Source of the DNA: Candidatus Terraquivivens tengchongensis
Lineage (GTDB): Archaea > Thermoproteota > Nitrososphaeria_A > Caldarchaeales > Wolframiiraptoraceae
DNA length: 64,000 nt
NCBI GenBank assembly: GCA_023261845.1
Contig: JALNJZ010000002.1
Location: 128,001 to 192,000, forward strand
Direction of reading: 5' to 3'
Under the pieces are notes generated by a model. The model was given only the letters and a program-made list of their open reading frames with translations. It was not told where the DNA came from and did no database searches. Each line of letters begins with the position of its first letter. Position 1 is the stretch's first letter. Shown here one piece after another: positions 21,457 to 36,393 of this stretch. The position numbers were made by a program, and so were the translations under genes.

Positions 21457-22245
21457 CTGAACTCTGATAAAATTGAGAAAAAGCTCAGGAGAAAAGAATT
21501 CAAGGCAGATAGGGAACAAAGATATCTGCATAAAAGGTCAGAACTTGATGAGGTTCTGGAAGAGGTTTTTGATAGACTTACGCTCATGACGATTTATGAT
21601 TTGATGAATGCCGGCGCGCTGTTAGAGTTTTATGGTGTAATTAGCGCTGGAAAGGAGTCGAGGATATATCTAGCAAAAGGTCCTGAGGGTTTCATAGCCG
21701 TAAAGATCTACCTGATAACTAGCGCGGAGTTCAAGAAAACTAGGATGACTTACGTGGCACATGACCCGAGGTTTAAAAGAATTCCGAGCGACTTTAGGGA
21801 CTTCATTTATCTTTGGGCAAAGCGCGAATTTGGAAACTTGAAAAAAGCATATGAGGCTGAGGTTCCAGTACCTAAACCATACTTCGTGGAAAATAACGTT
21901 CTGGGCATGCAATTTCTAGGAAAGAACGGAACAAGGTATCCAACATTGGAAGAGGTTGAATTGGAGCCTAACGATTATGAGAAGATTTATCCGCTGATTC
22001 TTGAGAATATGAAAAAGCTTTACCAAAAAGCAGACCTGATACATGCAGATATGAGCCAATATAACGTATTTGTTACGGATACCTTATCGATCTACTTCAT
22101 AGATTTGTCCCAGGCGGTCCACACTTCGCACCCCTTAGCCGAAGTGTTTTTGGAAAGAGATGTAAAGAACATCACAAAATTTTTCGAGAAAAAAGGGATT
22201 AATGTCAAACCTCCAGAAGAGGTCATTAAGTGGATAAAATCCTAA
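21457..22245 (+). CDS. rio1: RIO1-family serine kinase (start probably upstream of 21586, possibly CTG 21457)
   Basis: EEVFD in the upstream in-frame extension, ISAGKES, AVKIY, WAKREFGNL, LIHADMSQYN, FIDLSQAV. Confidence 0.9.
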   Translation: MNSDKIEKKLRRKEFKADREQRYLHKRSELDEVLEEVFDRLTLMTIYDLMNAGALLEFYGVISAGKESRIYLAKGPEGFIAVKIYLITSAEFKKTRMTYVAHDPRFKRIPSDFRDFIYLWAKREFGNLKKAYEAEVPVPKPYFVENNVLGMQFLGKNGTRYPTLEEVELEPNDYEKIYPLILENMKKLYQKADLIHADMSQYNVFVTDTLSIYFIDLSQAVHTSHPLAEVFLERDVKNITKFFEKKGINVKPPEEVIKWIKS

Positions 22246-22250
22246 AACCT

Positions 22251-23813
22251 TTACGTAAAGCTTTCCTGTTCTTCTAATTTTATCTTTTCCATAATGTCAG
22301 GGGTCACGCCCATCTTTTTCAGAAGCTTCGTAACGTCTGGAGGCTCCTTCCTATCTATGAGCTCTGCTGAAAATTTTGCTATCTTTGGAAGGTATTTAGC
22401 GTATATGCTCAACCTCTTTATTGCGACGGTACGTTTCTCAACTTTTATTAGATAACGCTTAAGCTCTCTGGCACATTCCCTTATTGCGATTATAAGCTCG
22501 CGCTCAATTTCCGGTCTATCGGCTATTGCCTCCTTGCCTACGGTCTTGTAAGGAATTTTCAGAGAACATATATGCGTGACAACAACAAGTGGTGCAACTT
22601 TTGGGACATTATAATTATTCCAATCAATTCTTTCAGATACTACTTTCCATACAACGTCAGCTCTTTCATCGTAGAGGAGCGGTATTTTATTCGCAAACCT
22701 GTATATTTGTATATTCTCGCTTGGCGGTATCTTGCCACCATATGCTATTGCAACTTCTACTATGAACGGAAAGCCAGAATAGGACTGTGGTGGTCTTTGG
22801 ACAACGTAGAGGAACTCCGGCATCAGTATTGCCCTAATGCCCGCCTCAAGCAAATCCTTGCCTATTGGACTGAGGGGGGTCGGGTCTGGTGCCCTGAACT
22901 TTTTATACCTTTTGATGGCCTCTACGAGCGCAGTAAGCTGATCATGATTTAATTCCTTTGGGTTTGCTGTGTGCGCGAGGCCAGCCAGCTCTAGAACTTC
23001 TCTTGCAGTTTTAGGGCCAACGCGCTGGAAGCTGGACGTCAAAAAGGATAAAAGAGTTTCAGACTTTGTTGCGGATATCAGCCGCTTCATGGTTTCTACA
23101 TCAACTCCTACTGGATGCGGTAGCGCCTCTTTTGGAGGTTCTGGTACCTTTTCGGCAACCCTTGGGAAGTAGTATAACCTGCCCTTAGGGTCGATGAACG
23201 TCAACGAAGCATTCGGGTTTGCAATGGCAGTATTTCTGAAGTACTCGACTATCTTCGCCTTGCTATTGGTGTAATCCGTCTCGAGATAATAATCTATTAT
23301 CGTGCCCCTCCAATTATCGTTATTTTTATGAACTTTATGATCGAGCACTATAGGTTTATTCTCAACGATGTCAATTCTCAAAACGAACTCATGTATGTCC
23401 CCATCTTTACAGGATATAACAGTCACTGGTCTGTTGGTTGTAATTTGGCCGTACAATAACGCCATTGTACCACCAAGCCCAAAAGTTCCACGCGATTGAC
23501 GGTATCCGTACTTGCTTCCGTAAAATACGGTTGCAAAGGCGTGTGGTATGTGTTCCGCATCAACACCTATCCCGTTATCTTTAACCCTCAACCTGAAAAT
23601 TTTAACGTCTTCAGAGCTGCCCTCACCCACCTCTTGTAGCTCAACGATTACCTCAGGTAAAATCCTTCCTACTTCACAGGCATCAAGCGAATTTTCTACG
23701 AGTTCTCTGATTGATGTATAAAGAGAACGGCTAGGATTTGTGAATCCAGCAATATCTCTATTACGGTAAAAGAAATCAGCGGGCGATATTTTCTCGAATT
23801 TTACCTCTGCCAA
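22251..23813 (-). CDS. top6B: DNA topoisomerase VI subunit B
   Basis: SPADFFYRN, RELVENSLDA, DNGIG, QSRGTFGLG (GHKL ATPase), RFANKIPLLY; TTG start after GGTGA. Confidence 0.95.
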   Translation of the reverse strand: MAEVKFEKISPADFFYRNRDIAGFTNPSRSLYTSIRELVENSLDACEVGRILPEVIVELQEVGEGSSEDVKIFRLRVKDNGIGVDAEHIPHAFATVFYGSKYGYRQSRGTFGLGGTMALLYGQITTNRPVTVISCKDGDIHEFVLRIDIVENKPIVLDHKVHKNNDNWRGTIIDYYLETDYTNSKAKIVEYFRNTAIANPNASLTFIDPKGRLYYFPRVAEKVPEPPKEALPHPVGVDVETMKRLISATKSETLLSFLTSSFQRVGPKTAREVLELAGLAHTANPKELNHDQLTALVEAIKRYKKFRAPDPTPLSPIGKDLLEAGIRAILMPEFLYVVQRPPQSYSGFPFIVEVAIAYGGKIPPSENIQIYRFANKIPLLYDERADVVWKVVSERIDWNNYNVPKVAPLVVVTHICSLKIPYKTVGKEAIADRPEIERELIIAIRECARELKRYLIKVEKRTVAIKRLSIYAKYLPKIAKFSAELIDRKEPPDVTKLLKKMGVTPDIMEKIKLEEQESFT

Positions 23814-23909
23814 TTTTATCACCGTTCTTGGATTTGTATCACGAATATTGTTATAGACTGCTACGCAATTTGTGCACAGCGCCTATTTTATCTTTCCCTA
23901 GGAATAACC

Positions 23910-24506
23910 CTATAGTTTAAATCCAGGCATAAACTTCCCCGCTTTTCTCTTCCGGGCATATTCGTCAAGCATCTTATATGCCACGCTGTGCGGTGAGCCG
24001 GTTATCAGCCTTATCACGGCCTCTTTAGCAGCTTCAACATCCTGAGGATCTCCTATTATCGCTACTGTATCTCCGTATATTGACACTAATGCGTGAGCAT
24101 TTTCTTCGATTATTTTTCTCGTCTTTCCTTCAGTTCCTATAAGTCTGGCCCTAACCCTAACCAGGTCATTCACATTCTTGCCGATGAAATCTTCTAAATG
24201 CACGATGTCTAGCACCACATTATCTTCAAAAAGTTTGAATGCCCTTTCTGGTGAAAAGCCTCTTCCTATTGCAACTACAACGTCACGGGCTTTAAACATG
24301 GCTGCCGGATCTCCTCCTTCGTTTGGGGACTTCGCAAGTTCTATTGATACGACACCATATTTGCTATCAATCGTGAGCTTCACGCCTAGCTTTTCCTCTA
24401 TTGTCTTCTTCACAGAACCGTTAACTCCTATCAGTACGCCTATTCGGTCTTTAGGTATGGTTACCGTAAGGATTCCATGCTTCAATTCTGAATTATCGGA
24501 ATACAT
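23910..24506 (-). CDS. KH-domain rRNA-processing protein (Pno1/Dim2 family)
   Basis: IPKDRIGVLIG, AIGRGFSPERA, RLIGTEGKTR, GSPHSVAY. Confidence 0.9.
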   Translation of the reverse strand: MYSDNSELKHGILTVTIPKDRIGVLIGVNGSVKKTIEEKLGVKLTIDSKYGVVSIELAKSPNEGGDPAAMFKARDVVVAIGRGFSPERAFKLFEDNVVLDIVHLEDFIGKNVNDLVRVRARLIGTEGKTRKIIEENAHALVSIYGDTVAIIGDPQDVEAAKEAVIRLITGSPHSVAYKMLDEYARKRKAGKFMPGFKL

Positions 24507-24559
24507 TCCGTCATGTTTCCAAGAAATTTAGTATTATATAAACAACAACTTGATTTCCT

Positions 24560-25318
24560 TCAGAAAACGACTTCTGAAGGAAATACGGTTATTCCGTTTT
24601 GTGTTATCTTAAACGGCCTAGGTTGTATGTCATGGTTCACACCTCTCATTTTCTCAATCATTAAAACATAAATGACGCCGCCGACTCTAATAAACCTCTG
24701 TAAAAGTATTACACCATGAGCGACATATTCTTCGATCTGATACTTCCTCTCAATTGACGATTGTGCAAGTTCCGAAATCACCAGTGTCGTGCACTCAAGT
24801 GGAGCGATACCCTGGATTAAGTTAAGTATGCTCTCTCTCCTTTCCACTTCGTCTGGATATTGTAATATGAATGTCGAGAGGGAATCTATAACGAGTCTTT
24901 TAGCATTTACCCTTCTGCATTCCTTTTTTATCTTTTCTATCAAAGATATGAGTTGGAATTCTTTGCTTCCAATCGGTACCTCACCCATCTTGATACTCTT
25001 CGATATGAAACGTACTGGCGAAGCATCAATTATAGCAATTTTACCCTCTCTCTCCAATTTATCTAAATCCCAACCAAACCTCAGCATGTTAGACTTAATC
25101 ATTTCAGGATCTTCTTCAAGAAGCACTAAGACACCATTTTCACCAAATTTAACGGCACCGTTATAAAGGAACTGGACACCAAGTGTCGTCTTACCACAAC
25201 CCGGTGAACCAAGGACTAGCACCATGTATCCTTTTGGTATGCCCTGCCCTTCCAACATAGCATCGATGCCATCTATACCTGTACGGGTGTATGCTCGCAA
25301 ACTAATCACCATATACAT
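24560..25318 (-). CDS. Single-domain KaiC/RAD55-like RecA-superfamily ATPase
   Basis: Walker A GSPGCGKT, LEE, Walker B RLVIDS, IEKMRG. Confidence 0.9.
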   Translation of the reverse strand: MYMVISLRAYTRTGIDGIDAMLEGQGIPKGYMVLVLGSPGCGKTTLGVQFLYNGAVKFGENGVLVLLEEDPEMIKSNMLRFGWDLDKLEREGKIAIIDASPVRFISKSIKMGEVPIGSKEFQLISLIEKIKKECRRVNAKRLVIDSLSTFILQYPDEVERRESILNLIQGIAPLECTTLVISELAQSSIERKYQIEEYVAHGVILLQRFIRVGGVIYVLMIEKMRGVNHDIQPRPFKITQNGITVFPSEVVF

Positions 25319-25424
25319 ATAAAAGTTATTTTTAAATTTAGCTATTTAACACTACCTCCGCCTAGTCTTTCTTGTGGGCGCTTTTCACACTCATCAATAT
25401 GTTCCTTCTCAAATGGGTACATCT

Positions 25425-25595
25425 CTACCCCTTCGGACGACCCTCAAGCTCTTTTAATGCATCCGAATTGTCCACTTCAATCACCACTGGCCCGATGTAG
25501 TCACACGAAGAGCACTGATACAACATTCCTGCATATCCGCCCAAGTATAAATTAATCCTATCGCTTTTGCAGATAGGGCATATTAGGGTTTTCAT
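25425..25595 (-). CDS. Small zinc-ribbon protein (56 aa; below ORF-track cut-off)
   Basis: Manual translation MKTLICPICKSDRINLYLGGYAGMLYQCSSCDYIGPVVIEVDNSDALKELEGRPKG*; two CxxC pairs; starts 3 bp after the Lrp stop with GAGGAG upstream. Confidence 0.75.
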   Translation of the reverse strand: MKTLICPICKSDRINLYLGGYAGMLYQCSSCDYIGPVVIEVDNSDALKELEGRPKG

Positions 25596-25598
25596 ACA

Positions 25599-26042
25599 TC
25601 AGAACTCCTCTTTGATCGTAAGAAATGATGCGCATGTCATGCTCTTCCCAACACCTTCAATAGCCCTGAGCTTGTCTATAACGAGCTCGCCTATCGATTG
25701 TATTGACTCCCCTCTTACCTTCAAAAGTATGTCCCACTCACCGGATATCAGATGAACCTCATGAACGTCGGGCAGTGTTGCTATATATTCACCAAGCTTT
25801 TTTTGAGAAATGTTCGCTCCTGGAAGAAAGGATATTAACACGAACGCCGTCGCTGGCTTGCCGAGCTTCGAGTAATCCGGCATTATGGTGAATTTTTTAA
25901 TTATCCCTTTACTCCTTAGCTTCTTTATCCTCTCCTGAACAGTCGTCCTCGGCATGTTGAGCTTCATTGCAAGCTCCGAGACGCTCTGGCTTGCATCCTC
26001 AATAAGCTCATTTAATATCTTCCAATCTTTTTCGTCCATCAT
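25599..26042 (-). CDS. Lrp/AsnC-family transcriptional regulator
   Basis: MDEKDWKILNEL..SELAMKLNMPRTTVQERIKKL..GII; VHLISGEWDILLKV RAM domain. Confidence 0.93.
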   Translation of the reverse strand: MMDEKDWKILNELIEDASQSVSELAMKLNMPRTTVQERIKKLRSKGIIKKFTIMPDYSKLGKPATAFVLISFLPGANISQKKLGEYIATLPDVHEVHLISGEWDILLKVRGESIQSIGELVIDKLRAIEGVGKSMTCASFLTIKEEF

Positions 26043-26130
26043 GTCATTATAAAATAATGTTAACGGTTGCTTTTGGTTCTTACTCTTATGATGTTTATTC
26101 GTTAAGAACTGAATTAAAAGTAAAGGAAGT

Positions 26131-26946
26131 TTAGCTGACGCTGGAGGCCTGTGCCTCCTTCCAGATAAGTATTATTGCATACTCTCTAGGTATGCCCTTA
26201 GACTGCATAATGGTCTCTATATTCCTCTGCAAGGATTCATCAACCCTTGGGCCAAACTTCGCTCCATGCTCTTCTTTTAACTCTTCGTAGAGTTTGTCAG
26301 CAAGCTCGGTGTACGTTGTTAAAGAATAAATTTTTTTCGGCAACTCAGAAATCGTTCTAGCCATTTCTTCCAGTTCTCTAATCTTCTTTTTCTTCTCAGA
26401 AAGTTCTTGCCTAAGGATTGTGACCTTTGCCTCTAAGCTTGCTTTAAGCTCTTGAGGCACGGACACGTTCGAGCTTTCCTTATATTTCAGCGTATCTAAC
26501 TCAACGATCGAGATACATAATTCCGTCTCAATATTCGAAAATTCAGTCTCCAATTTGCTCTTAGCCGCATTAATTTTTTCAACTAAAGACGCCGACTCAC
26601 CAACTATTTGCTCCCTCATCGCGTTCCATCTTGCCAAAACCTCTCTAATGGTTGCAATACTGATGTCCTGTTCCAGAAGCATCTTTTGGAATATTTGCTC
26701 CCGTATCTTTACTTCTTGTATCTTTGACATGAGAGCGTCATACCTATCAAAAGCTTCTTTAACTATTGAAACCTCAAGGTCCTTAGGTGGTACGATACTC
26801 TCAGGTGGTTTTTCTTGCAACTTTGCTTCTGTTTCTATAGTGCTTACTTCAGGCTCTAGCTGAGGAACTTCCTCTACTATGTCCTTCGGCATTTTTTCTT
26901 CTTTAAACTTTATAACTATCTTTTTTGGCATTATAGAACCTCCCAA
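26131..26946 (-). CDS. Coiled-coil protein directly downstream of the JAMM gene (possibly CdvA-like)
   Basis: Long heptad-rich helical region after an acidic/Pro-rich linker; 35 bp downstream of the JAMM gene on the same strand. Confidence 0.65.
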   Translation of the reverse strand: MGGSIMPKKIVIKFKEEKMPKDIVEEVPQLEPEVSTIETEAKLQEKPPESIVPPKDLEVSIVKEAFDRYDALMSKIQEVKIREQIFQKMLLEQDISIATIREVLARWNAMREQIVGESASLVEKINAAKSKLETEFSNIETELCISIVELDTLKYKESSNVSVPQELKASLEAKVTILRQELSEKKKKIRELEEMARTISELPKKIYSLTTYTELADKLYEELKEEHGAKFGPRVDESLQRNIETIMQSKGIPREYAIILIWKEAQASSVS

Positions 26947-26981
26947 TCAAATCCCAGTTTTTTAAGAATCCACATATAATT

Positions 26982-27611
26982 TCATCCCTTCTTATTTGGT
27001 AGAAGTTTCTTGGTTTTGCTAAAAAACTTTACTATAGAGTCAATATCAAGCATTTTGGTGGTGCTGCCCTTCGCATCTTCGTTAGTAGCGGGTTTTTTGG
27101 GAATCAAATCAATCATTTGGAGACCGATTAGTGTGCTTTCAAGGACTTTATGCCGCTGTAAACCGAGTGTGAACCTTACGGGCACAACTTTTTCATTTTT
27201 ATCTATTCTAAATACGCCGATCTTGAGGTCCGAAACTTTCCAGCTGGCACTAAATTGCACAGGGTCTATGACCAACGCTATGGCCTTAGGAAACATAGCC
27301 TGGTAGGCTTTTTGTGTCTCAATATCTATGGGTGACATAAAGACGTTTAAACCGGGATGCGAATGGTACCAGCCAACTATATACAGGTCTGGAATATTCT
27401 CTACCAAGACTTCGGCAACCAGGGCCATAACGCTCTCCTCAAGCTTAACGTATGCGGGTGAGCTTTGTTGAAGACCCGTAACAGCATCCCAGACTTCAAC
27501 AACGTCCGATACGACTTTTCCTACCATTAACCCTGCGACTTCTTGATTAAGGTTGCTAATGGAGTGATGAAGTATCTTACCAAGAGCTAAGGGATAAATA
27601 CGTGCCCTCAT
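26982..27611 (-). CDS. rpn11: Rpn11-like JAMM/MPN+ deubiquitinase / pro-ubiquitin maturase
   Basis: EVAGLMVG, VGWYHSHPGLNVFMSPIDIETQ (E..HSH..S..D), ALVIDP; divergent from ubiquitin. Confidence 0.92.
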   Translation of the reverse strand: MRARIYPLALGKILHHSISNLNQEVAGLMVGKVVSDVVEVWDAVTGLQQSSPAYVKLEESVMALVAEVLVENIPDLYIVGWYHSHPGLNVFMSPIDIETQKAYQAMFPKAIALVIDPVQFSASWKVSDLKIGVFRIDKNEKVVPVRFTLGLQRHKVLESTLIGLQMIDLIPKKPATNEDAKGSTTKMLDIDSIVKFFSKTKKLLPNKKG

Positions 27612-27805
27612 GGAACCTGCATATTAATGCTTAACCATATTAATTAACGTTTGAAACGACCAATGAGGTTGCCAAATAGCCCTTAGCGTAATGCGCCCAA
27701 AATATATGGGAATTCCCGGCGTTGTTTGCACGTAACCCCCAATCGCTTTAAAAAGTTAATACTTAAATACGTTACAAGTAAAGTGCCGATGGGGGTTAAC
27801 GACTT

Positions 27806-28087
27806 ATGAAAATCAAAGTTATACCTGCGGTTGGTGGCGGTAGCCCTCTAGAATTGGAGGTATCACCAAACGCAACAATAGGGGCAGTTAAGGCGAAAAT
27901 TTGCGCGATTAAGAAACTTCCACCAGACACCACGTACCTAACCTACAAGGGTAGGGCCTTAAAAGAAACGGAAACACTCGCAAACATAGGCATATCAGAA
28001 GGCGACAAATTGGTCATCATAACGAGAACAGTGGGGGGTGACGCTTCTGGAGACCTACTCAGAATTACCCGAACCTCTGTGGAATAA
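27806..28087 (+). CDS. Eukaryote-like ubiquitin precursor (78-aa mature Ub ending TVGG plus 15-aa propeptide)
   Basis: Beta-grasp pattern LELEVSPNATIGAVKAKI..LTYKGRALKETETLANIGISEGDKLVIITRTVGG; very similar, from recall, to Caldiarchaeum ubiquitin. Confidence 0.95.
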   Translation: MKIKVIPAVGGGSPLELEVSPNATIGAVKAKICAIKKLPPDTTYLTYKGRALKETETLANIGISEGDKLVIITRTVGGDASGDLLRITRTSVE

Positions 28088-28553
28088 AAGACTGGCCGTA
28101 GAGTATAGGTTAATGCAGGAGCGTGACCCTCCGTTATTCGATATAGTTGATGGTGATCTGACACACTATACGGGCGTGATAGTAGGCTCCGGATACTACG
28201 AGGGTGGGTACTTTAAGGTAGAGATAAAAATACCAAGGGCATACCCATACGTGCCGCCTGATGTTGTCTGGCATACAAGGATATGGCATCCCAATTTCAC
28301 AGACGAAGTCCCTGCTAGGATATGCGAATCCATTTTCAAAGATGATTGGAGACCTGGATTGTACCTCGTGAACATCATCGAAGCTCTCCAAAATCTGTTA
28401 GCCAACCCAAACCCGGATGATCCGCTCAATTCGATAGCCGCTTATGAAATGAAGTATAGACCTGATGTTTTTTTAAATAGGGTTAGGTACTACATACAGT
28501 TATACGCAACCCCAGAAAAGCTCTTTGAGAAAAAGTTAAAGTGGCGAATATAG
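28038..28553 (+). CDS. Ubiquitin-conjugating enzyme E2
   Basis: GYYEGGYFKVEIKIPRAYPYVPP, WHPNF..RICESIFKDDWRP (HPN plus catalytic Cys), LLANPNPDDPLN. Confidence 0.95.
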   Translation: MTLLETYSELPEPLWNKRLAVEYRLMQERDPPLFDIVDGDLTHYTGVIVGSGYYEGGYFKVEIKIPRAYPYVPPDVVWHTRIWHPNFTDEVPARICESIFKDDWRPGLYLVNIIEALQNLLANPNPDDPLNSIAAYEMKYRPDVFLNRVRYYIQLYATPEKLFEKKLKWRI

Positions 28554-28713
28554 CTAAAATTTCGTTTTCCACAATCTCGTGGAGCGTAAGATACAGGAGA
28601 GTAGAATTCCTAAAATACATCTACAATGGATATGCACTAAAAGGGTTTACAAGACCCTATTCTAGAGGATAATAAACATTATTATATCGTTTTAGCAGAC
28701 TTTCGAGCTGTAA

Positions 28714-29901
28714 ATGGAGCCGTATCTGCTGGAAAGATATGATAGACAGATAAGAATCAGCGGATGGGATCAGTGGAAAGTATCGAACTCAACGGTCTTA
28801 ATAGCAGGCGTAGGCGCAACGGGTTGCGAGTTAGCAAAGAACCTTTGCCTTGCAGGAATAGGTAAGCTGATCTTAGTTGACAACGATGTGATCGAGCTCT
28901 CGAACCTTAACCGCCAAATGCTTTTTGACGATTCTGATATAGGTTCACCGAAAGCTATAATTGCCAAAGAGAAGCTCCAGAAGATAAACCCCTATGTTAA
29001 GGTTGATGCTTACTATGAGGACATAAGAAAGTTTGACGAATCTATGTTAAAGAACGTGGATGTGTTTTGTTCTTGTCTAGACAACTGGGCAACGAGAAGG
29101 TGGCTCAACTCGCTTGCCGTCGAGCTTAAGAAACCACTCGTGGATACAGCGATCGAAGGTCTTTATGGGAATGTACAGGTTGTAATACCAGGAGAAACCG
29201 CATGTCTTGAATGTCATGGTGATGCCTTAATCCCTAAGGACACACAATTGGCTGAATGTACACTTAGAAGGCGTAAGCCAGAGGACTTGGCTGAGGACTT
29301 AAGGAAAAACAAAATCGAGATGCCCTTTGAACTTGTTAAAGAGCTGTTCTCTATGGGTATAAAAACGATTTATGACCTGAAATATACGCCAATAGAAAGG
29401 TTTCAAAAAGAAGGTAGTAAGATTTCCGAGGAGATACTCAGGATAAGGGATCTTCTAAAGCCCAAGCTACCGGCAATTCAAGGAGGAGCATCGGTCATAG
29501 CAGGTGTGGCATCTTTAGAGGTACTGAAAATAATACATGGTGGAAGCATTGGAAAGGTAGCGAAGCACCTAATAGTCTACGATGGCGTATCACAAAGGTT
29601 AACTAAGGTCACTCTAAAAAGAAGAGAAGACTGCTTTGTTTGTGGCGATATTATGCAAGGAAAACCAATCGAGATAACGGTTAGTCCTGACGACTATATA
29701 TGGAACTTAAAGGAAAAGATAAGTACGTTATTCAGCATACCAGATCCCGAAATCCAGTATAAAAAGTGGATATTAAAAGACGAACAAAAGTTATCGGAGA
29801 TAAACATTAAAAGCGACGACATACTATATATCCACACGAGTAGGCGGTACGTGCCAATACCCATAAAGGTGAGCCTTATTGAAAATAGTAGTGGGACATG
29901 A
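28714..29901 (+). CDS. Ubiquitin-activating enzyme E1 (ThiF/MoeB adenylation domain, Cys domain, C-terminal ubiquitin-fold domain)
   Basis: RYDRQI, GVGATG, DNDVIELSNLNRQ, Zn CLEC/CFVC, putative catalytic ECTL, C-terminal Ub-like ITVSPDDYIWNLKEKI..LKDEQKLSEINIKSDDILYI. Confidence 0.93.
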   Translation: MEPYLLERYDRQIRISGWDQWKVSNSTVLIAGVGATGCELAKNLCLAGIGKLILVDNDVIELSNLNRQMLFDDSDIGSPKAIIAKEKLQKINPYVKVDAYYEDIRKFDESMLKNVDVFCSCLDNWATRRWLNSLAVELKKPLVDTAIEGLYGNVQVVIPGETACLECHGDALIPKDTQLAECTLRRRKPEDLAEDLRKNKIEMPFELVKELFSMGIKTIYDLKYTPIERFQKEGSKISEEILRIRDLLKPKLPAIQGGASVIAGVASLEVLKIIHGGSIGKVAKHLIVYDGVSQRLTKVTLKRREDCFVCGDIMQGKPIEITVSPDDYIWNLKEKISTLFSIPDPEIQYKKWILKDEQKLSEINIKSDDILYIHTSRRYVPIPIKVSLIENSSGT

Positions 29902-29908
29902 GGTTTGT

Positions 29909-30109
29909 GTGGGCAAGTGGATCTGGACAAAGGTTAAGACTGTGAATAGGGTGTGCCCGGTTTGCACTTCCGAAATTGATGAAGGTGCGGCTACAACAAC
30001 GTGCCCCCATTGTGGTTCCGTGGGTCATAAGGCGTGTTTTGATAGTTGGTTAAGTATAAGGAATGCGTGCCCGATATGTAAGAGACCAGTATTGGAGATG
30101 GTGTTATGA
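29909..30109 (+). CDS. Small RING finger protein (E3 ligase)
   Basis: CPVC-x12-CPHC-x4-H-x2-C-x3-W-x6-CPIC; likely GTG start 29909 after GAGGT. Confidence 0.9.
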   Translation: MGKWIWTKVKTVNRVCPVCTSEIDEGAATTTCPHCGSVGHKACFDSWLSIRNACPICKRPVLEMVL

Positions 30110-30417
30110 GCGAGGAAGAAGAGTTTGTAATAGATCTCGAGTATGTCGATACGCCTAGCGGAAAAGTGGCATCACTCAACACCGTCAAGAAATTGGCTGA
30201 AGCAATTTCTATAGTTCACGAAGAAGCTGAAAAACTATCAACCAAAGTCCTTTCTCTCGAAAGTAAAATACCTGGTGCTGATTTATTAAATAGGTTAGAG
30301 AGTAGGTTAGCGGCTTTGGAGAAGGGCCAAGATCAGATACTTGCACATATAGACTCGTTAATAGAGGCCTTTAACAGTCTCATAGAAACTTTAGAGAAAA
30401 CATTGAGAAAGGATTAA
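30106..30417 (+). CDS. Small coiled-coil protein, last gene of the Ub-E2-E1-RING run
   Basis: ATGA overlap with the RING stop; heptads LLNRLESRLAALEKGQDQILAHIDSLIEAFNSLIETL. Confidence 0.75.
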   Translation: MSEEEEFVIDLEYVDTPSGKVASLNTVKKLAEAISIVHEEAEKLSTKVLSLESKIPGADLLNRLESRLAALEKGQDQILAHIDSLIEAFNSLIETLEKTLRKD

Positions 30418-31253
30418 GGAGTAAGTATAGCTTTCCTGAATTCTCCTACCAACTTCTCCAGACTCGCCTTCCGCTCCGTAAGCTCGTTTATATCGTTTAA
30501 CAGCTCTGCTTTCTTTACCTCTAACCTAGAAATTTCTTCGCTCATCTCCCGCATCCTATTTTCTAACTCACGTGTCATCTCTTCGCGCTCCTTTATTTTC
30601 ATAAGAGCGTCCGATAACTCCCTCTCCCTTTTTGCGATCCTTTCAAGTCTTATCTCTTTTAGCTTAAACATGCGGTTTATCTTATTTACCTCTTCGTCAA
30701 TCTTATGTAGCATTCCCTCTAACGATACCAAGTAACGCTGGGATAGGTCTTTAAGTTCCGCCTCTATTCTGTTTTTCTTCTCTTCGAGCTCCCTAACATA
30801 CGCGTCAAAGTTTGATAATTTATGCTCCTTCTCTTCAAGGTCCGCCTTCCACTTCTTCAACTCGTTTTTGAGAATCTCGAGCTCACTCTTTTCTTTAATT
30901 AACTTCTCTACATCTTCTCTAAGCATTGCTCTTTCTCGTGAGAGCAGCTCTAAAACATCATTAAGACCTTCTTTGATGGAATCGAACCATTCTTTATATT
31001 CCTTTATAACTTTCAACTCCTTAACGATACTTTCTGCGCTTTCTGCTGCTTCGCTTACTCTTGCTAAGAATTCCTCCGGGAATGTTCTTTCTCGTGAAAG
31101 TTCCTTAACATTTTCTGAAATTTCGATAAGTGTTCTCTCAAGCGAACTAACCCTTCTATCCATTTTCTCTTCGAGTTGGAGCCTAAGTTCCTCTAACTCT
31201 CTTCTAAACTCATTAAGGATCTCTTCTTTGGACTTTCCTCCAAGAAAACCCAT
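30414..31253 (-). CDS. Long coiled-coil protein
   Basis: 279 aa, E/K/L/R-rich continuous heptads, N-terminal MGFLGGK. Confidence 0.75.
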   Translation of the reverse strand: MGFLGGKSKEEILNEFRRELEELRLQLEEKMDRRVSSLERTLIEISENVKELSRERTFPEEFLARVSEAAESAESIVKELKVIKEYKEWFDSIKEGLNDVLELLSRERAMLREDVEKLIKEKSELEILKNELKKWKADLEEKEHKLSNFDAYVRELEEKKNRIEAELKDLSQRYLVSLEGMLHKIDEEVNKINRMFKLKEIRLERIAKRERELSDALMKIKEREEMTRELENRMREMSEEISRLEVKKAELLNDINELTERKASLEKLVGEFRKAILTP

Positions 31254-31378
31254 TTTGGTTCACGAAAGTTTGTATAAAGCTCATATAAAAGCATACAGGG
31301 CATAAGCGAGGGTTAATTTTAAAATTAAGGTTACAATTAAAATATTTAATAAACAAGAAAAACTAACAAGAAGGTTGA

Positions 31379-32074
31379 GTGGTGGGTTTGGCGGTTTCAT
31401 CCCAAGCAGTATTGGGGCGGTTTTTTAAGCTAGCGTTGATTGTGACAGGAATAGGTGCGATCCATATCCTCACGCTATTCATGTCTTGGTACACGGTCGT
31501 GTCAGATACGATAACCACAACCACCATACAGGGATATGCCATCGCTGAGTCTCTTTACATGTCAATCGCAGGGGGTATAGTTTGCGGAATTGCTCTTATA
31601 CTGTCCTCCACTTCATCGAATATAATAACTGCGAAGTGGCTCGTCGGAGCTACTGCACTTGTCGGAGCTCTTCTCGCAATAACATCACCAGCTTATACGC
31701 ACTTCATAGTAATACCTGCGCTACAGGCAAAGGGGTATTTAGAAATAGGAATATTCATGTCATACTTTTCAGCAATAGCGATGTTTGTCCCTGCCGCCAC
31801 TATAATAGCAACACCCATTAGGGTCGAAGTAGCACCTCACGTCGGGCCTCCTTATCTTGGGACTTCAGCCCCGATTGTTGAGGAAGCTGTTGAACTGACA
31901 CATGTAATCGATATACCTCCCGGTGCTATTTGCGGGATATGTTACCAAGAATTGGACCCAGAAACCACCATGATGTGTAGCAATTGCCAGACGATGTTTC
32001 ATAAAGGTTGCATCGATATCTGGGTAAACTTAAACGGTACGTGTCCAAGCTGTAAGAAGCCCGTAGTCAGATAA
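31379..32074 (+). CDS. Multi-pass membrane protein with C-terminal RING finger (putative membrane E3 ligase)
   Basis: About 4 hydrophobic helices, then CGIC-x11-CSNC-x4-H-x2-C-x3-W-x6-CPSC. Confidence 0.85.
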   Translation: MVGLAVSSQAVLGRFFKLALIVTGIGAIHILTLFMSWYTVVSDTITTTTIQGYAIAESLYMSIAGGIVCGIALILSSTSSNIITAKWLVGATALVGALLAITSPAYTHFIVIPALQAKGYLEIGIFMSYFSAIAMFVPAATIIATPIRVEVAPHVGPPYLGTSAPIVEEAVELTHVIDIPPGAICGICYQELDPETTMMCSNCQTMFHKGCIDIWVNLNGTCPSCKKPVVR

Positions 32075-32116
32075 ACCTTTTTATATTAAACAAGTATTAC
32101 GTTTACCCTTAGGCGT

Positions 32117-33586
32117 ATGGAATCAACAACCTCGCTATACAACGAGATAGTCAGGCTGGCGCTCGAACGGAACTTCTTCTTCCCATCATCTGAGATATAC
32201 AGTGATGCACCCGCAGGTTTTTACGAATATGGACCGCTGGCAGTATCGATGAAGAACAAGTACATAGAGATATGGCGAAGAGAACTGATTAGAAGAGATG
32301 AGATGGTGGAGATAGACGGCTCTCAGATAATGCCGAAGAGTGTATTTATAGCATCTGGACATCTTGAAAGCTTCACCGATCCTATAACTAGATGCACATC
32401 ATGTAATGCCATCTTTAGAGCTGATAAACTACTTGAGGAAATCTTAGGATTTTCAGTGTCCGAAAGGCTGGCTACGGAGGAGATGGATAAGCTTATCTCA
32501 GAACATAATGTAGCCTGTCCAAAGTGCAAAGGCAAACTTGATAAGGTTTCAAAGTTTAACATGATGTTCAAAGTAAACGTTGGCGTGTCAGGAGATGAAT
32601 GTTACCTCAGGCCAGAAACATGCCAGAGCATCTTCGTCGATTTCCTTAGGATTTACAAAACGATGAGAAAGAAACTTCCATTTGCGATCGCACAATACGG
32701 TAAAAGTTTCAGGAATGAGATATCGCCCAGACAATCTCTGATTAGGCTTAGAGAGTTCTACCAGGCGGAGATCGAGGTATTCTTTAATCCGAAGAAGGCT
32801 AATGATTTACCAAAAGCACGCGAGTATGAGAATTATGTTTTAAGGTTAAAGCCTTTAGAGAAAGATGAGGTCATTAAAGTTTCTTGCAAAGAGAGTGTCG
32901 AGACGGGTCTCATCTCGAGCATGCTCGTAGCCTATTACCTTGCCCTCATCCAACGTTTCTACCAAATTGTAGGCATTGACATGGAACGATTCAGGTTAAG
33001 ACAATTGAGTGACGACGAAAGGGCATTCTATGCGAAGGAGGCATGGGATGTGGAAGTTTTGACGAGCATTGGATGGATAGAGCTTGTTGCCTGTAACAAC
33101 AGGACAGATTACGATCTCTCCGGCCACTCTAGAGTTAGCGGTCAAGATTTGAGCGTTTACGATGACGGTGAGAAAATCATACCACATGTATTCGAACTTT
33201 CCATGGGGGTTGACAGAAGTCTGTTTTGTATATTAGAGCATAGTTATACAAAAGAAAGCGATAGAACGTTATTGAAGCTTCCGCCTATGCTAGCACCAAT
33301 TCAGGTAGCAGTTTTCCCGCTTGTTACCAAGGATGGTTTAGACAAAAAGGCAATGGAGGTCTACGAAGCACTAAAGCTAGACTTTGATGCCATCTATGAC
33401 GATAGCGGCTCTATAGGCAGGCGCTACAGGAGACAAGACGAAATAGGCACACCGTTTTGCGTGACTATAGATTATCAAACAATGGAAAATGAAACCGTTA
33501 CAGTTAGGGATAGAGACACAATGAATCAGGAAAGGGTACCTATCAGGGACCTCAAAAGGTACCTCATGGAAAAGTTAAGATATTGA
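32117..33586 (+). CDS. glyS: Glycine--tRNA ligase (alpha2 type)
   Basis: SGHLESFTDP, YLRPETCQ, GKSFRNEISPRQ..RLREFYQAEIE, SIGRRYRRQDEIGTPFCVTID. Confidence 0.96.
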   Translation: MESTTSLYNEIVRLALERNFFFPSSEIYSDAPAGFYEYGPLAVSMKNKYIEIWRRELIRRDEMVEIDGSQIMPKSVFIASGHLESFTDPITRCTSCNAIFRADKLLEEILGFSVSERLATEEMDKLISEHNVACPKCKGKLDKVSKFNMMFKVNVGVSGDECYLRPETCQSIFVDFLRIYKTMRKKLPFAIAQYGKSFRNEISPRQSLIRLREFYQAEIEVFFNPKKANDLPKAREYENYVLRLKPLEKDEVIKVSCKESVETGLISSMLVAYYLALIQRFYQIVGIDMERFRLRQLSDDERAFYAKEAWDVEVLTSIGWIELVACNNRTDYDLSGHSRVSGQDLSVYDDGEKIIPHVFELSMGVDRSLFCILEHSYTKESDRTLLKLPPMLAPIQVAVFPLVTKDGLDKKAMEVYEALKLDFDAIYDDSGSIGRRYRRQDEIGTPFCVTIDYQTMENETVTVRDRDTMNQERVPIRDLKRYLMEKLRY

Positions 33587-33633
33587 ACAATTAGGATGAG
33601 AAAGGTTTAAAGCAATAATGTTTATTCTTAAAT

Positions 33634-34308
33634 GTGAACGACATGACTCTACCAAGGGATAGAGAAGAAGAATATAGTGCCAGGTTGCTCTCGCTACTAC
33701 AAGACCAAATTCGGAAGGTTATGGAGATGTCTAGGGCAGTCCTTTTGATGATAGAGGATATCATGAATGAAGTTCCCCTTAAAGACATAGAGGCCAGATA
33801 CGATGCAATCTTGAAACTTGACGATGAAGAACGGAACATTAGAAGGATGATAGAAAAGGACATTGCCAACATAGGTGCACTCCTAACGAGCAAGGAGGAT
33901 TTCATAAGACTGATGAATAGTCTCGATAAAATCGCTGACACATCAGAAGGAATTGCTTATAGACTCGTGAGTCTGATAAAGATGAAGTTCAAAATAAACA
34001 AAGACATATTCAAAGGAGTGCTCCAGCTAGGCGAGGCGGTTCATTCGATCCTCGGTAAACTAAGAGAAGCGTTGCTAAGCGTCGCACTTGATTCTGAGAC
34101 TTTCATGAAGAAGGTTGCGGAAATAGATAACGCAGAAAGAGAAATAGACGACATATACAGGAATTTAAGCCTTGTAATCCTTCAGAGCGATATGAAGGTT
34201 GGCCATATGTTCCTCATAAGGGAAATAGTGTCTTTGCTCGAAGAGATAGCGGACAAGGCTGAAGAATCCGTCGAAACATTAAGGACGCTCTCACTCACGG
34301 TGTTTTAG
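33634..34308 (+). CDS. DUF47/PhoU-like helical protein
   Basis: KEDFIRLMNSLDKIAD..EREIDDIYR..LEEIADKAE repeats. Confidence 0.75.
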   Translation: MNDMTLPRDREEEYSARLLSLLQDQIRKVMEMSRAVLLMIEDIMNEVPLKDIEARYDAILKLDDEERNIRRMIEKDIANIGALLTSKEDFIRLMNSLDKIADTSEGIAYRLVSLIKMKFKINKDIFKGVLQLGEAVHSILGKLREALLSVALDSETFMKKVAEIDNAEREIDDIYRNLSLVILQSDMKVGHMFLIREIVSLLEEIADKAEESVETLRTLSLTVF

Positions 34309-34878
34309 TTGACGCATACTTTAAACGATCAAGAGAAGATAGTTGCCGACCTCGTTCAAGACAACATAATAGTGTGGGATGTAAAGAAGGGGAGGGAGCT
34401 CTACAAGTTAGGATGCTACGGAAAACCACTCGGCATACCTAAGCCCAAGAGTTTCGAGTTTGACGCACCACTCATTTTAGACGTGATAGAAGCAGTTTAT
34501 TTGGTAGAGAAAGGAATCATCAGCGTTAAGAAAAACAACTCTTTGATGAAGTTGGATGAGCTGATAGAGTACGGAAAGAAGAATTATGAAAGGTTCGAGG
34601 AGAAGTATTTGGTGTACAAAGACCTGAGGGATAGGGGATTCGTGGTCACACCTGGCATAAAGTTCGGAAGCGACTTCGCGGTATACAAGCACGGCCCAGG
34701 AATAGATCATGCGCCCTTCATAGTCCAGGTCAAGCTCGAAGACGACGAGCTTTCGGCCGCGGATCTGATAAGGGCAGGCAGGCTGGCAACTACCGTCAGG
34801 AAGCGCTTCGTCATAGCCGTCCCGAATCTAATGGATAAAAAGGTCACGTACTTGGCGTTTGAGTGGTGGAAGGCTTAG
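34309..34878 (+). CDS. endA: tRNA-splicing endonuclease, catalytic subunit
   Basis: VYKDLRDRGFVVTPGIKFGSDFAVYKHGPGIDHAP, RLATTVRK (Tyr/His/Lys triad). Confidence 0.93.
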   Translation: MTHTLNDQEKIVADLVQDNIIVWDVKKGRELYKLGCYGKPLGIPKPKSFEFDAPLILDVIEAVYLVEKGIISVKKNNSLMKLDELIEYGKKNYERFEEKYLVYKDLRDRGFVVTPGIKFGSDFAVYKHGPGIDHAPFIVQVKLEDDELSAADLIRAGRLATTVRKRFVIAVPNLMDKKVTYLAFEWWKA

Positions 34879-34902
34879 AGGTCTTTTTGTATTGATGAAA
34901 AA

Positions 34903-34977
34903 CGGGCCCGGCGGGATTCGAACCCGCGACCCCCGACTTAGAAGGCCGGTGCGCTGTCCATTCTGCGCCACGGGCCC
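34903..34977 (-). tRNA. tRNA-Arg(TCT), no encoded CCA
   Basis: GGGCCCG acceptor stem, anticodon arm CCGGC-CTTCTAA-GTCGG, T arm GGTTCGAATCC. Confidence 0.95.
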
Positions 34978-35131
34978 TTTTACGTTGCGAAACACAATAT
35001 TTACGCTGTTTATGTTATGATGGTCGCTGCCTTATAAATATCCTTCTATGAACAGTTTTAGATGTTACTTTCTAAAAATTCGGAAAAATTTTGAAAAAGT
35101 TTTTAAGAATTATAAAGGATCAAAGCCCGAG

Positions 35132-35377
35132 ATGACGGATAAACCTGTTATCGAGACAAGATCGTTAGTAAAGATTTATAGAGCTGGTCCAGTCGAGGTG
35201 CCGGCCCTAGGGGATCGTGAAGAACGTAGAACTTCAGCTCTCTATGAGTCCTGTAATTACGCCTGAACTAATCGTAACTGCTTTACTGTTTGCCGTGTTG
35301 ATAGGTGCTTTAGCAGGGCTGTTGCCCGCATAGAGGATCACAAAGTTAACACCTGTCAAGCTTTACGATATGAATAA
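35132..35377 (+). pseudogene. Collapsed relic of a LolD/MacB-type ABC transporter locus
   Basis: ATPase N-terminus MTDKPVIETRSLVKIYRAGPVEVPAL followed by permease C-terminus ..LIGALAGLLPA*RITKLTPV/ALRYE* with a stop and a frameshift. Confidence 0.7.
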
Positions 35378-35553
35378 CACAATAGTATGACGATAACTCC
35401 TCAAAAGCCCCTTAGCAAACTATAAGGTCTGAGTTGGGGCTTTATATATTGAACATTAACTTCAGCCCCAGCTCTTTAATGACCGAATAAACCAGTTAAA
35501 GCAAAGTCCTTTTATACCAAAAGAATTATATAGGTAATACAGATGAAAAAATC

Positions 35554-36393
35554 ATGCCATATTGTCCCAAATGTGGGAGAGAGGTCTCTCCCGAAGATTC
35601 TTTCTGCAGAAATTGTGGCACCAGTCTGGTTCCTGTTGTTCAATACCCGCCCACACATCCAGTAGTTGCTCCACCACCAAAGTGGAGCAGGAGAAAATTC
35701 ATAGGAGCGGTGGTCGGCATATCAGCTTTGGCTCTGCTTGGGTTTTTTGCGTACCAACAATATGGAAAAGAACTGGAGAAACTTTTTGGTCAGGAGACCA
35801 CGACTACGACAAAGATTGTTACGACTTCGAAGCAGACGACAACAGCCCAACCATATGTTACTACAACAGCTGGCACTACTACAATAACGACCACTACTTC
35901 ACCGTATTCCACTACGACAACAACTACGACGACAACACCTGCTGTAGCATGGCCGAGGGACAAGCCTGAATGGATTGAAAGGGATTGGGAGGAAACAGTT
36001 TATCCTTACTTGGTTGCATACTGTCAAGCTGAGCGTGAAGCTGTTGAAACTACAGTGGTAAACGAAGGAAATGCTACCGCCTACTTTGCTGTATTAGAGC
36101 TTTATGCTCTAGGAAGATATCGTTTTGATGAACCCAACCGTCATCTAGACCACTCTCTAAGAGAGCTTGTACTCTTAAGACGTTTTTCAGGTATAGTCCT
36201 ACATCCTGGAGAGAGAAAGAATTTCCAATTCGTAATAGACGCTCCACCAAAGATTTACGACCCGGTCGTTTGGATATGTTATGACCCAATACTTGACCCG
36301 AAAGGATTTAGTGTAGATAGTAATGCTGAGCTGAGATCCGTAGTTCAAAACAGACATGTGGTTATACGAGGTCGATACGGAATAATTGGGTGA
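35554..36393 (+). CDS. Zinc-ribbon + TM + Thr-rich linker + extracellular domain protein
   Basis: YCPKCG..FCRNCG; SRRKFIG plus hydrophobic helix; poly-Thr linker. Confidence 0.75.
   Translation: MPYCPKCGREVSPEDSFCRNCGTSLVPVVQYPPTHPVVAPPPKWSRRKFIGAVVGISALALLGFFAYQQYGKELEKLFGQETTTTTKIVTTSKQTTTAQPYVTTTAGTTTITTTTSPYSTTTTTTTTTPAVAWPRDKPEWIERDWEETVYPYLVAYCQAEREAVETTVVNEGNATAYFAVLELYALGRYRFDEPNRHLDHSLRELVLLRRFSGIVLHPGERKNFQFVIDAPPKIYDPVVWICYDPILDPKGFSVDSNAELRSVVQNRHVVIRGRYGIIG

Follow-up and report, generated by a model that had tools for sequence, protein, structure and literature searches.

A stretch of 64,000 nt of Candidatus Terraquivivens tengchongensis (contig JALNJZ010000002.1, positions 128,001 to 192,000), called here the window, contains at positions 26131-32074 a locus which by its sequence is a Caldiarchaeum-type, eukaryote-like ubiquitin cascade within a conserved neighbourhood of nine genes. 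The host genome has 1.22 Mb and is 99.4% complete. Five genes form the core, encoding a JAMM protease, a ubiquitin precursor (pro-Ub; Ub, ubiquitin), E2, E1 and a small RING protein (sRING), and four are accessory: three encode helical proteins (CC1, CC2 and CC3) and one encodes a membrane RING protein (mRING). The core and a second E3 are already published; the order-wide conservation of the four accessory genes in Caldarchaeales, their module structure, the assignment of CC2 to a family and the fold predictions for CC1 and CC3 are new. The genes and the two divergent intergenic regions are as follows, with the Pfam match of each gene.

26131-26946 as an open reading frame (ORF), revised to 26131-26931, minus strand: CC1, no Pfam match
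26982-27611, minus strand: JAMM, Rpn11-like deubiquitinase or pro-Ub protease, PF01398 9.9e-20
27612-27805: divergent intergenic region between JAMM and Ub, sequence read
27806-28087, plus strand: pro-Ub, PF00240 2.2e-12
28038-28553, plus strand: E2, UBC fold, PF00179 UQ_con 4.6e-28
28714-29901, plus strand: E1, ThiF 1.7e-62, C-terminal ubiquitin-like domain 2.3e-7 at residues 314-377
29879-30109, plus strand: sRING, small RING E3 of the srfp type, 76 residues, zf-RING_2 2.3e-10
30106-30417, plus strand: CC2, 103 residues, no Pfam match
30414-31253, minus strand: CC3, 279 residues, no Pfam match
31254-31378: divergent, AT-rich intergenic region between CC3 and mRING, sequence read
31379-32074, plus strand: mRING, zf-RING_2 2.4e-9 at residues 185-226

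The nine genes named in the earlier note all prove to be genuine, and JAMM, pro-Ub, E2, E1 and both RINGs retain their catalytic motifs (ORFs, Pfam and motif script). JAMM shows the metal motif H-x-H-x7-S-x2-D in the motif script, and its orthologues in relatives share 48-86% identity (BLAST). Pro-Ub shows Gly-Gly (GG) at residues 77-78 and after it a tail of 15 residues, E1 shows GxGxxG and two CxxC, and E2, whose reading frame overlaps that of Ub at the 3' end of the latter, shows an intact HPN...Cys and is the sole E2 of the host genome (Pfam UQ_con and E2 scans). The sRING ORF overlaps E1 by 23 nt and its stop overlaps the start of CC2 as ATGA, the coupling that had been noticed at first reading, while CC2 and CC3 are convergent with overlapping stops. 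Both sRING and mRING show the ligand spacing C-x2-C-x11-C-x2-C-x4-H-x2-C-x10-C-x2-C, and the host genome contains exactly these two RING proteins. The N-terminal G-x-W-x-W region of sRING, with G12 and W14 invariant in 21 sequences, corresponds to the N-loop region of Asgard RING E3s. The region 27612-27805 is presumed to be a bidirectional promoter between JAMM-CC1 and Ub-E2-E1-sRING-CC2. Judged by these motifs, the locus encodes a complete cascade, with an Rpn11-like protease able to mature pro-Ub, one E1, one E2 and two paralogous RINGs.

In the window, JAMM is divergent from Ub-E2-E1-sRING and genes overlap, and the core shows the same five genes, order and overlaps as the operon of Ca. 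Caldiarchaeum subterraneum, to which it had been compared, with JAMM divergent from Ub-E2-E1-srfp (PMC3082918, PMC5654768, PMC6043591). The pro-Ub tail after GG, the C-terminal ubiquitin-like domain of E1 and the RING spacing are also alike, but the organism of the window belongs to another family than C. subterraneum. Sequential E1-E2-E3 transfer and Rpn11 processing have been shown biochemically with C. subterraneum proteins (PMC5654768, PMC6043591), the cascade being rebuilt around a surrogate substrate taken from a different organism (PMC5654768). The core proteins of the window are 47-77% identical to their orthologues of family f4, and from this identity we infer the same transfer and processing in the host. 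As a separate observation, the last ~25 residues of JAMM (window 26982-27100) form a Ser-rich, basic, amphipathic tail of the pattern ..S.I/V.KKFK.K.., which is conserved in the orthologues, is retained even where CC1 is relocated, and could be a docking or membrane-binding helix.

Conservation was followed in an order sample of 41 genomes, the window's own and 40 relatives, belonging to four families and 11 genera; gene maps were made by BLAST for 20 of the 41 genomes and for ten further stretches. An additional set contains 67 titled Caldarchaeales loci obtained via an E2 alignment search, in whose count RING-only matches, RING matches in ORFs longer than 140 residues and coiled-coil matches covering less than half of the profile were dropped. 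Samples of the phylum contain 60 genomes in the order and 341 outside it for the mRING profile, and 35 and 216, respectively, for each of CC1, UQ_con and the CC2 family. The E2 is present in 41/41 genomes of the order sample and CC1, single-copy, likewise in 41/41; the mRING profile matches in 41/41, full length in 40 (in the exception it is fragmented at the locus), CC3 is found in 40/41 (the exception has a contig break there) and the CC2 family is full length in 35/35 order genomes. The accessory genes are therefore single-copy and nearly universal in the order, and since their orthologues show 24-40% identity across the four families, they are real genes and not chance ORFs. The E2 itself (Pfam UQ_con) is found in 35/35 order genomes versus 4/216 outside. 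Its closest relatives belong to Ca. Terraquivivens records (90-95% identity) and the further ones to Wolframiiraptoraceae (Wolframiiraptor, Geocrenenecus and Benthortus), Ca. Caldarchaeum, Pelearchaeum and Calditenuaceae, all of them Caldarchaeales.

The Ub-E2 order is the same in 20/20 relatives mapped by BLAST and sRING follows E1 in 16 of them; JAMM is missing from the stretch covered in two of the 20, and E1 in one. Among the 67 titled loci, sRING follows E1 in 39, CC2 in 38 and CC3 in 38, and the remainder are Calditenuaceae-type loci or short contigs. Across the whole order the accessory genes are syntenic with the ubiquitin genes, in line with the extended locus that the earlier note had drawn. 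The distances between genes in the 41 genomes are as follows.

sRING to CC3: less than 3 kb in 40, 3-15 kb in 0, more than 15 kb in 0, other contig in 0, not available in 1
CC3 to mRING: less than 3 kb in 34, 3-15 kb in 0, more than 15 kb in 1, other contig in 4, not available in 2
E2 to sRING: less than 3 kb in 29, 3-15 kb in 1, more than 15 kb in 2, other contig in 8, not available in 1
E2 to CC1: less than 3 kb in 21, 3-15 kb in 6, more than 15 kb in 2, other contig in 12, not available in 0

Wherever the locus is split, modules persist. One genus of Calditenuaceae shows sRING-CC2-CC3-mRING and the glycyl-tRNA synthetase gene (GlyRS) ~85 kb from JAMM-CC1/Ub-E2-E1, and one genome shows four pieces: JAMM-CC1, Ub-E2-E1, sRING-CC2-CC3 and Lrp-mRING-GlyRS. 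In two lineages JAMM and CC1 relocate together. The family of the window includes four genera in which CC1 is located 5-13 kb beyond mRING, having moved along with a block of DUF35, thiolase, HMG-CoA synthase and Lrp genes. All nine genes, in the order of the window, are found in a record titled Ca. Caldarchaeum subterraneum (L150), and the extended locus is thus shared by the published model organism; the available text of the published C. subterraneum work covers five genes, and the flanking genes stand as "hypothetical proteins" in a figure legend. An Lrp/AsnC-type regulator gene (window 25599-26042, minus strand) also stays near the pieces of the locus: it adjoins CC1 in the window's genus, is 2.7 kb from CC1 elsewhere and adjoins mRING in two Calditenuaceae genomes, a proximity which may be mere synteny.

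mRING shows four conserved hydrophobic helices, in which Gly, Ser, Pro, Trp and Tyr occupy invariant positions, then a variable linker and, at the C-terminus, the RING, whose ligands C185, C188, C200, C203, H208, C211, C222 and C225 are invariant in 14 sequences and whose zf-RING_2 score is 37.8 bits, the cut-off being 27.3 bits. At the srfp positions I30, W58 and R69, the Ile and Trp that contact E2 and the basic linchpin behind the last Cys pair, which were found important (Hennell James 2017, PMC5654768), mRING has I187, W215 and K226; in the alignment, Ile is kept in at least 90% of the sequences, Trp is replaced by Tyr in 2/14 and the linchpin is non-basic in 4/14. The mRING profile matches in 60/60 order genomes versus 3/341 outside, and these three are RING-only matches on unrelated proteins with transmembrane (TM) and bPH domains and a RING. 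By its sequence features mRING is a genuine RING paralogue of sRING and a second E3; "a second E3 protein" is mentioned once in the available text of Fuchs 2018 (PMC6043591). By Kyte-Doolittle hydropathy, mRING has four hydrophobic stretches and the other eight proteins of the locus have none, while three flanking housekeeping proteins each have one window above the threshold. The polytopic membrane RING described at the outset agrees with these predicted stretches and the intact RING, and as the predicted number of helices is even, mRING would be inserted in the membrane with its RING in the cytosol. It very probably belongs to the ubiquitin system. The eukaryotic membrane quality-control E3s of the Hrd1 and Doa10/MARCH types are polytopic RING E3s. 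As predicted for mRING, they combine a part embedded in the membrane with a RING in the cytosol, to which a soluble E2 is recruited; in mRING the RING is C-terminal, after four helices. Other Thermoproteota contain TM-bPH_2-RING proteins of 308-312 residues (L064:6272-7210, L065:9099-10025 and L066:9090-10028); BLAST finds no Ub, E2 or E1 beside them, and they were dropped as comparators on that ground.

The N-terminus of CC2 is acidic and is followed by the motif [IV]x[ILV]x(Y)[ILV]xTPxGxV, which is of beta type and contains the invariant positions Y13, T16, P17 and G19, and then by a coiled coil. A profile made only from Caldarchaeales sequences matches one Asgard protein with an HHalign probability of 95.9% (E 5.2e-9) over 47 columns that comprise the N-terminal motif and the first helix, and by exact look-up this protein is identical in every residue to WEU39992.1 of Ca. 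Odinarchaeum yellowstonii, the named example of the uncharacterized asCOG005522 in the cluster formed by Ub, a RING E3 and a ubiquitin E2 variant (UEV) fused to Vps23 (10.1101/2023.07.25.550441). CC2 is thus a member of asCOG005522, which in the available part of that source is described as uncharacterized and Asgard only, with no link to Caldarchaeales. As in the window, a small G-x-W-x-W RING adjoins the CC2-family gene in the Asgard cluster (10.1101/2023.07.25.550441), but the Caldarchaeales locus contains no UEV-Vps23, CC3 and mRING following instead, and the Asgard proteins are longer (130-190 versus 103 residues).

The widened CC2-family profile, run on 301 Asgard genomes at a cut-off of E 1e-4, matches in 98, and 61 of the 301 have a best E of ~4e-9 or better (table count); the second count is the safer one because the noise level outside the order reaches E 1e-8. 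That noise consists of 26/216 genomes outside the order with E from 1e-8 to 1e-4, where all matches but one start at profile position 12 or later, with the N-terminal motif missing or short, as expected from coiled-coil noise. The neighbourhoods of the 30 best Asgard loci, 1.5 kb on each side, contain a small RING in 21/30, a core Ub gene in 16/30 and one or the other in 26/30, and the TP motif is present in 30/30. Nine of these 30 loci show an adjoining E2-like protein of 249-272 residues; the three that were scanned with Pfam match UQ_con/UEV, one with a sub-threshold Vps23_core. The sRING-CC2 pairing holds across phyla and paralogous loci, and CC2 can be assigned to the ubiquitin system with good confidence. 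A complex prediction for sRING with CC2 scored 0.12, the mark being 0.32, which says nothing either way on binding.

In Jord- and Freyarchaeia, the CC2-like domain forms the first ~106 residues of an AAA ATPase of 459-463 residues that is encoded directly after sRING. This N-domain is matched by hmmsearch at 4e-11 in a three-sequence set and at 1.6e-8 and 7.3e-8 per whole genome, and HHalign gives 87% between it and CC2, versus 0.2-3% for controls. The AAA part (PF00004 6.7e-26) is closest to the D2 domain of p97/Cdc48 (2.7e-48). The locus (L191:9659-15752, with parallels in L186, L192, L193 and L196) contains JAMM, Ub-E2-E1, three RING proteins, the CC2-AAA+ gene and an SMC_N protein (SMC, structural maintenance of chromosomes); the RING and SMC proteins are as follows.

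UBC/RWD-RING protein, 286 residues
M48-like HExxH-RING protein, 235-246 residues, RING domain 42-46% identical to that of mRING
small RING with a G-x-W-x-W N-terminal region, 74 residues
SMC_N plus hinge protein, 831 residues, PF02463 1.8e-43

It shares with the window JAMM, Ub-E2-E1, an mRING-like RING domain, a small RING (of 74 residues here) and the CC2 domain followed by a long coiled-coil protein. However, CC2 is fused here to a Cdc48-D2-like AAA domain, the coiled-coil gene encodes a true SMC_N plus hinge ATPase, the mRING-type RING is located on an M48-like HExxH domain and not on four TM helices, the UBC/RWD-RING protein is additional and CC1 is lacking. The same genomes show a second Ub locus, E1-E2-Ub-sRING, divergent from a free CC2-like gene of 151 residues. 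Beside such a second locus in Jordarchaeia (L199:4050-9043) are genes encoding a 593-residue protein with DUF11 and a sub-threshold match to the adaptor-complex medium subunit, an ARPC4-like protein (30 bits) and an IFT52 GIFT-domain protein. In the host genome of the window, the Asgard AAA+ query at E <=1e-10 matches only two Cdc48/VAT-like double-ring ATPases (732 and 736 residues) and a Vps4-like protein; no PAN-type single-ring ATPase is among these matches, the PAN query itself not being used.

The three helical proteins had been described together as coiled-coil proteins, which is an oversimplification: CC2 has the conserved non-coiled N-terminal motif and CC1 is predicted as a compact helical bundle. 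In Pfam, NCBIfam and PDB-profile searches all three give nothing but generic coiled-coil matches under the cut-offs. The comparison with Asgard places CC2 in asCOG005522, and CC1 and CC3 stay outside the known families of these databases (and of Foldseek for CC1). CC3 is predicted by AlphaFold2 (predicted local distance difference test, pLDDT, 87) as a helix at residues 9-53, a break at a conserved Pro and a single helix at 60-277, 218 residues long, which would give a rod estimated at ~32 nm; its N- and C-terminal motifs are conserved. It remains with sRING-CC2 in 40/41 genomes, including every broken-up locus, and in the other genome it is not assembled there. CC3 shows no homologue outside the order and no known domain in the Pfam, NCBIfam and PDB-profile searches, and the ESM Atlas search returns only its own unnamed cluster. 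Its membership of the ubiquitin system is slightly favoured. Its terminal motifs were presumed at one point to resemble ESCRT-III ends (ESCRT, endosomal sorting complex required for transport), an identity with ESCRT-III/Snf7 that was rejected on the straight 218-residue helix of the AlphaFold2 model and on the Pfam families listed, Snf7 being neither among the 25 families most matched by 16 CC3 members at E up to 1 nor among the 21 matches of the first member. An identity with SMC or Rad50 was also rejected, the matches being at coiled-coil level, far below the cut-offs, with no head, hinge or zinc hook, as was an origin as the arm of the SMC-like neighbour in Asgard archaea (HHalign 3%, equal to the control).

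The gene downstream of JAMM is present as first described, but with its start most likely at ATG 26931, where a GGAGG is located 8 nt upstream and the conserved N-terminus begins, CC1 has 266 residues and its gap to JAMM is 50 nt and not 35. CC1 is predicted to start with a conserved motif of the MPKKIVIK type, to continue as a disordered, acidic linker and to end in a six-helix bundle; AlphaFold2 (pLDDT 83, predicted template modelling score, pTM, 0.69) places the bundle at ~55-270 in the numbering of the 271-residue ORF that was folded (from 26946). It is found in 35/35 order genomes versus 1/216 outside, a weak partial coil, and its profile, run against 1.84 billion representative proteins, matches 14 clusters at E <=1e-30 before dropping sharply to fragments and coiled-coil noise. 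There is no homologue outside the order and no known domain in Pfam, NCBIfam and PDB-profile searches, and nothing at E <=0.001 with Foldseek versus PDB. In an exhaustive VIA search of 48,161 chains the top fold match is the CdvA filament of S. islandicus (Z 11.9, root-mean-square deviation 3.4, 130 residues), which is within the chance range for helical bundles, and the nearest ESM Atlas cluster scores 0.77, below the lead threshold, with Pfam CdvA in 20% of its members. The likeness to CdvA (PF18822, PDB 9s9g) is limited to this superposition of the helical domain; CC1 differs from it in having no PRC barrel, its N-terminus being predicted disordered by AlphaFold2, no match to the Pfam CdvA model (PF18822), whose weak matches in the genome lie elsewhere, and no profile-profile signal. 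HHalign gives 6% versus CdvA, no better than controls, and 4-6% versus UEV-Vps23. An identity with CdvA or a Vps23 domain was rejected on these HHalign values (4-8% overall, no better than controls), a test of low power because the positive control, CdvA versus the C-terminal part of Vps23, also failed (8%). Because the Pfam, HHalign and PRC-barrel tests are negative and the fold match is in a grey zone, we do not assign CC1 to CdvA. Among Caldarchaeales, 0/15 genomes contain canonical CdvA, versus 76/106 other genomes of the phylum sample, and its absence in the group is also stated by Nunoura 2011 (PMC3082918) and Hua 2018 (PMC6053391). Membership of CC1 in the ubiquitin system is tentative, somewhat below an even chance.

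The stretch or part of it is contained in 18 public runs from ten studies, 15 of which contain at least half of its words; nearly all are labelled hot-spring metagenomes and one is a metatranscriptome. The transcript data are the contigs of this one run at >=99% identity, in 30 bins over 22000-36000; they cover 27/30 bins, unevenly, the depth varying between 0 and 39.8. A contig at 26078-27070 reaches from CC1 into JAMM, the deepest one (29891-30777) runs through sRING and CC2 to the 3' end of CC3, and another lies inside mRING. Two further RNA runs, X20 and X21, contain next to nothing matching the stretch, which is no evidence of absence.

From these data a scheme can be proposed in which sRING, a bare RING of 76 residues, would work with CC2 as its adaptor or first substrate, and CC2 would connect ubiquitylation by sRING with an element downstream that reads or processes it. 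In Asgard archaea this element would be UEV-Vps23 or the Cdc48-like AAA+ ATPase fused to the CC2 domain, and in Caldarchaeales it would be the lineage-specific rod of CC3. Because the same RING is placed on the cytoplasmic side of a four-helix anchor, mRING would direct the single E2~Ub to the membrane or to membrane-proximal proteins. CC1, whose gene mostly stands second in the transcription unit of JAMM, would be a helical-bundle partner of the deubiquitinase, possibly docking the C-terminal helices of JAMM; in the C. subterraneum Rpn11-type enzyme these helices are dispensable for catalysis (Fuchs 2018, PMC6043591) and so would be free for docking. The scheme as a whole, with sRING-CC2-CC3, the membrane mRING and the JAMM-CC1 partnership, is tentative and falls just short of an even chance. 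The larger machine suggested in the earlier note is supported in part, by the synteny, by the CC2 homologues beside the Asgard small RING and by mRING being a genuine RING paralogue. As partners or substrates of the cascade the accessory proteins are candidates, and the readings as ESCRT sorting or as membrane quality control are likewise conjectural.

Several points weigh against this scheme. Synteny in the order also preserves unrelated genes, GlyRS, a PhoU-like gene and EndA beside mRING and the genes encoding DUF35, thiolase and HMG-CoA synthase beside CC1, so adjacency is weak evidence for CC1 and CC3, which have neither a homologue outside the order nor a known domain. As Caldarchaeales is one clade, co-occurrence across the order is a single evolutionary observation and not independent evidence. 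CC1 is split from JAMM in the four genera of the window's own family mentioned above, and mRING is apart from the sRING block in one genome. Since the closest Asgard RING has an M48-like domain and no clear membrane anchor, membrane targeting would be lineage-specific. The RNA contigs come from one run in which DNA carry-over is possible, and they do not prove single transcripts.

On these grounds only the RINGs and CC2 might belong to the ubiquitin system, with CC1, CC3 and the mRING-GlyRS position being neighbours kept by slow rearrangement and having unrelated functions. The equal synteny of housekeeping genes, the departure of CC1 from JAMM together with a mevalonate-pathway block in four genera and the lack of Asgard counterparts of CC1 and CC3 favour this explanation, but CC3 stays with sRING-CC2 in 40/41 genomes, including all the broken loci, JAMM and CC1 relocate as a pair in two lineages, and CC1, CC3 and the ubiquitin system have exactly the same narrow range; we regard it as fairly unlikely.

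By analogy, the helical proteins might instead be dedicated substrates, CC2, CC3 or CC1 being mono-ubiquitylated by sRING as a switch or for degradation. In vitro, an Asgard sRING ubiquitylates its gene neighbour UEV-Vps23, at the steadiness box (10.1101/2023.07.25.550441), and with the cascade of C. subterraneum the lysines modified were in the coiled coil of Rad50, the surrogate substrate (PMC5654768); CC1, CC2 and CC3 are Lys-rich (8.7-11.8%). However, the roles of substrate and adaptor are not exclusive, and a CC2 domain fused to an AAA+ ATPase resembles a recruiting domain more than a degradation target, so that a purely dedicated substrate role appears unlikely.

CC1, read as a CdvA- or Vps23-like bundle, could also form with CC2 and CC3 an upstream module like ESCRT-I or CdvA, linking membrane ubiquitin written by mRING to CdvB/Vps4. 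The CdvA filament as top fold match of CC1 and the Atlas cluster with 20% CdvA point this way, as do an order with canonical CdvA in 0/15 genomes, two Snf7 genes and one MIT/Vps4 gene in the host genome, and Asgard CC2 homologues beside UEV-Vps23. Nevertheless, Z 11.9 lies within the chance range and 0.77 below the lead threshold, the tests of CC1 versus CdvA (HHalign 6%, Pfam and PRC barrel) and versus UEV-Vps23 (4-6%) are negative, and the Snf7 and Vps4 genes are outside the locus, which makes this coupling quite improbable. If true, it would mean that the interplay of ubiquitin and ESCRT predates the TACK-Asgard split, and it would give a starter of membrane remodelling outside Asgard archaea.

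In eukaryotes, RING or SP-RING subunits dock on SMC arms, and by analogy sRING-CC2-CC3 might act on or with coiled-coil ATPases of the SMC/Rad50 type. This is very improbable: although the gene after CC2-AAA+ in Jord- and Freyarchaeia encodes an SMC_N plus hinge protein (PF02463 1.8e-43), CC3 shows weak matches to SMC and Rad50 coiled coils and Rad50 was an in vitro substrate (PMC5654768), HHalign of CC3 versus the Asgard SMC-like protein reaches 3%, the same value as the control, the predicted CC3 is a straight single helix that lacks both head and hinge, and the SMC neighbour occurs in one Asgard lineage only.

The locus offers four conserved single-copy candidates for partners or targets of archaeal ubiquitin, of which CC2 belongs to a family that accompanies the small RING E3 in Caldarchaeales and in many Asgard lineages, and because the cascade already works in vitro, the hypotheses on the accessory proteins are directly testable with recombinant proteins. 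The CC2-AAA+ fusion in one Asgard lineage hints at an ancient link of RING ubiquitylation to AAA+ processing or ESCRT-I. In the available text of the published sources no description was found of the order-wide nine-gene architecture, the coiled-coil genes, the link of CC2 to asCOG005522 or the AAA+ fusion, and supplements, such as that of PMC5654768, may show flanking genes.

Other ubiquitin loci were found besides the one in the window. A second type of archaeal Ub operon is present in Thermoproteota/Bathyarchaeia records (L115-L118 and L197-L198), with the order: a Zn-ribbon/B-box-like protein with C-terminal TM helices, a TM-anchored JAB protease, Ub ending at or near GG, E2, E1 with an N-terminal ubiquitin-like domain (Ubl) and a small Zn-ribbon/B-box-like protein. 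The JAB protease has 212-525 residues, in some records with matches to Ig-like domains below the cut-off. Independently of the window, components of an archaeal Ub locus are thus membrane-anchored in this operon too. The Calditenuaceae-family genome G034 (L232:4232-5531) shows a fused Ubl-E2 of 272 residues, with GG between the domains, and the ORF that overlaps and follows it carries in translation the JAMM signature H-x-H-x7-S-x2-D; on the flanks of the pair are genes for three helical proteins and a FlaI/VirB11-like ATPase, labels which come from sequence reading. The second E2-like match of this genome had been considered as UEV-Vps23, which was rejected for the Ubl-E2 fusion beside the ORF with the JAMM signature. 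From these sequence features it is taken to be a second, prokaryote-type system in the same order.

Beyond the locus, a tRNA-Arg(TCT) gene is located at window 34903-34977 (minus strand), behind an endonuclease gene, and a DNA run shows a spike of depth there. In the EndA-like gene, one DNA contig and one contig of the RNA library skip 332 bases (34381-34714), with 23 letters on the short side, and probably represent another organism or a repeat.

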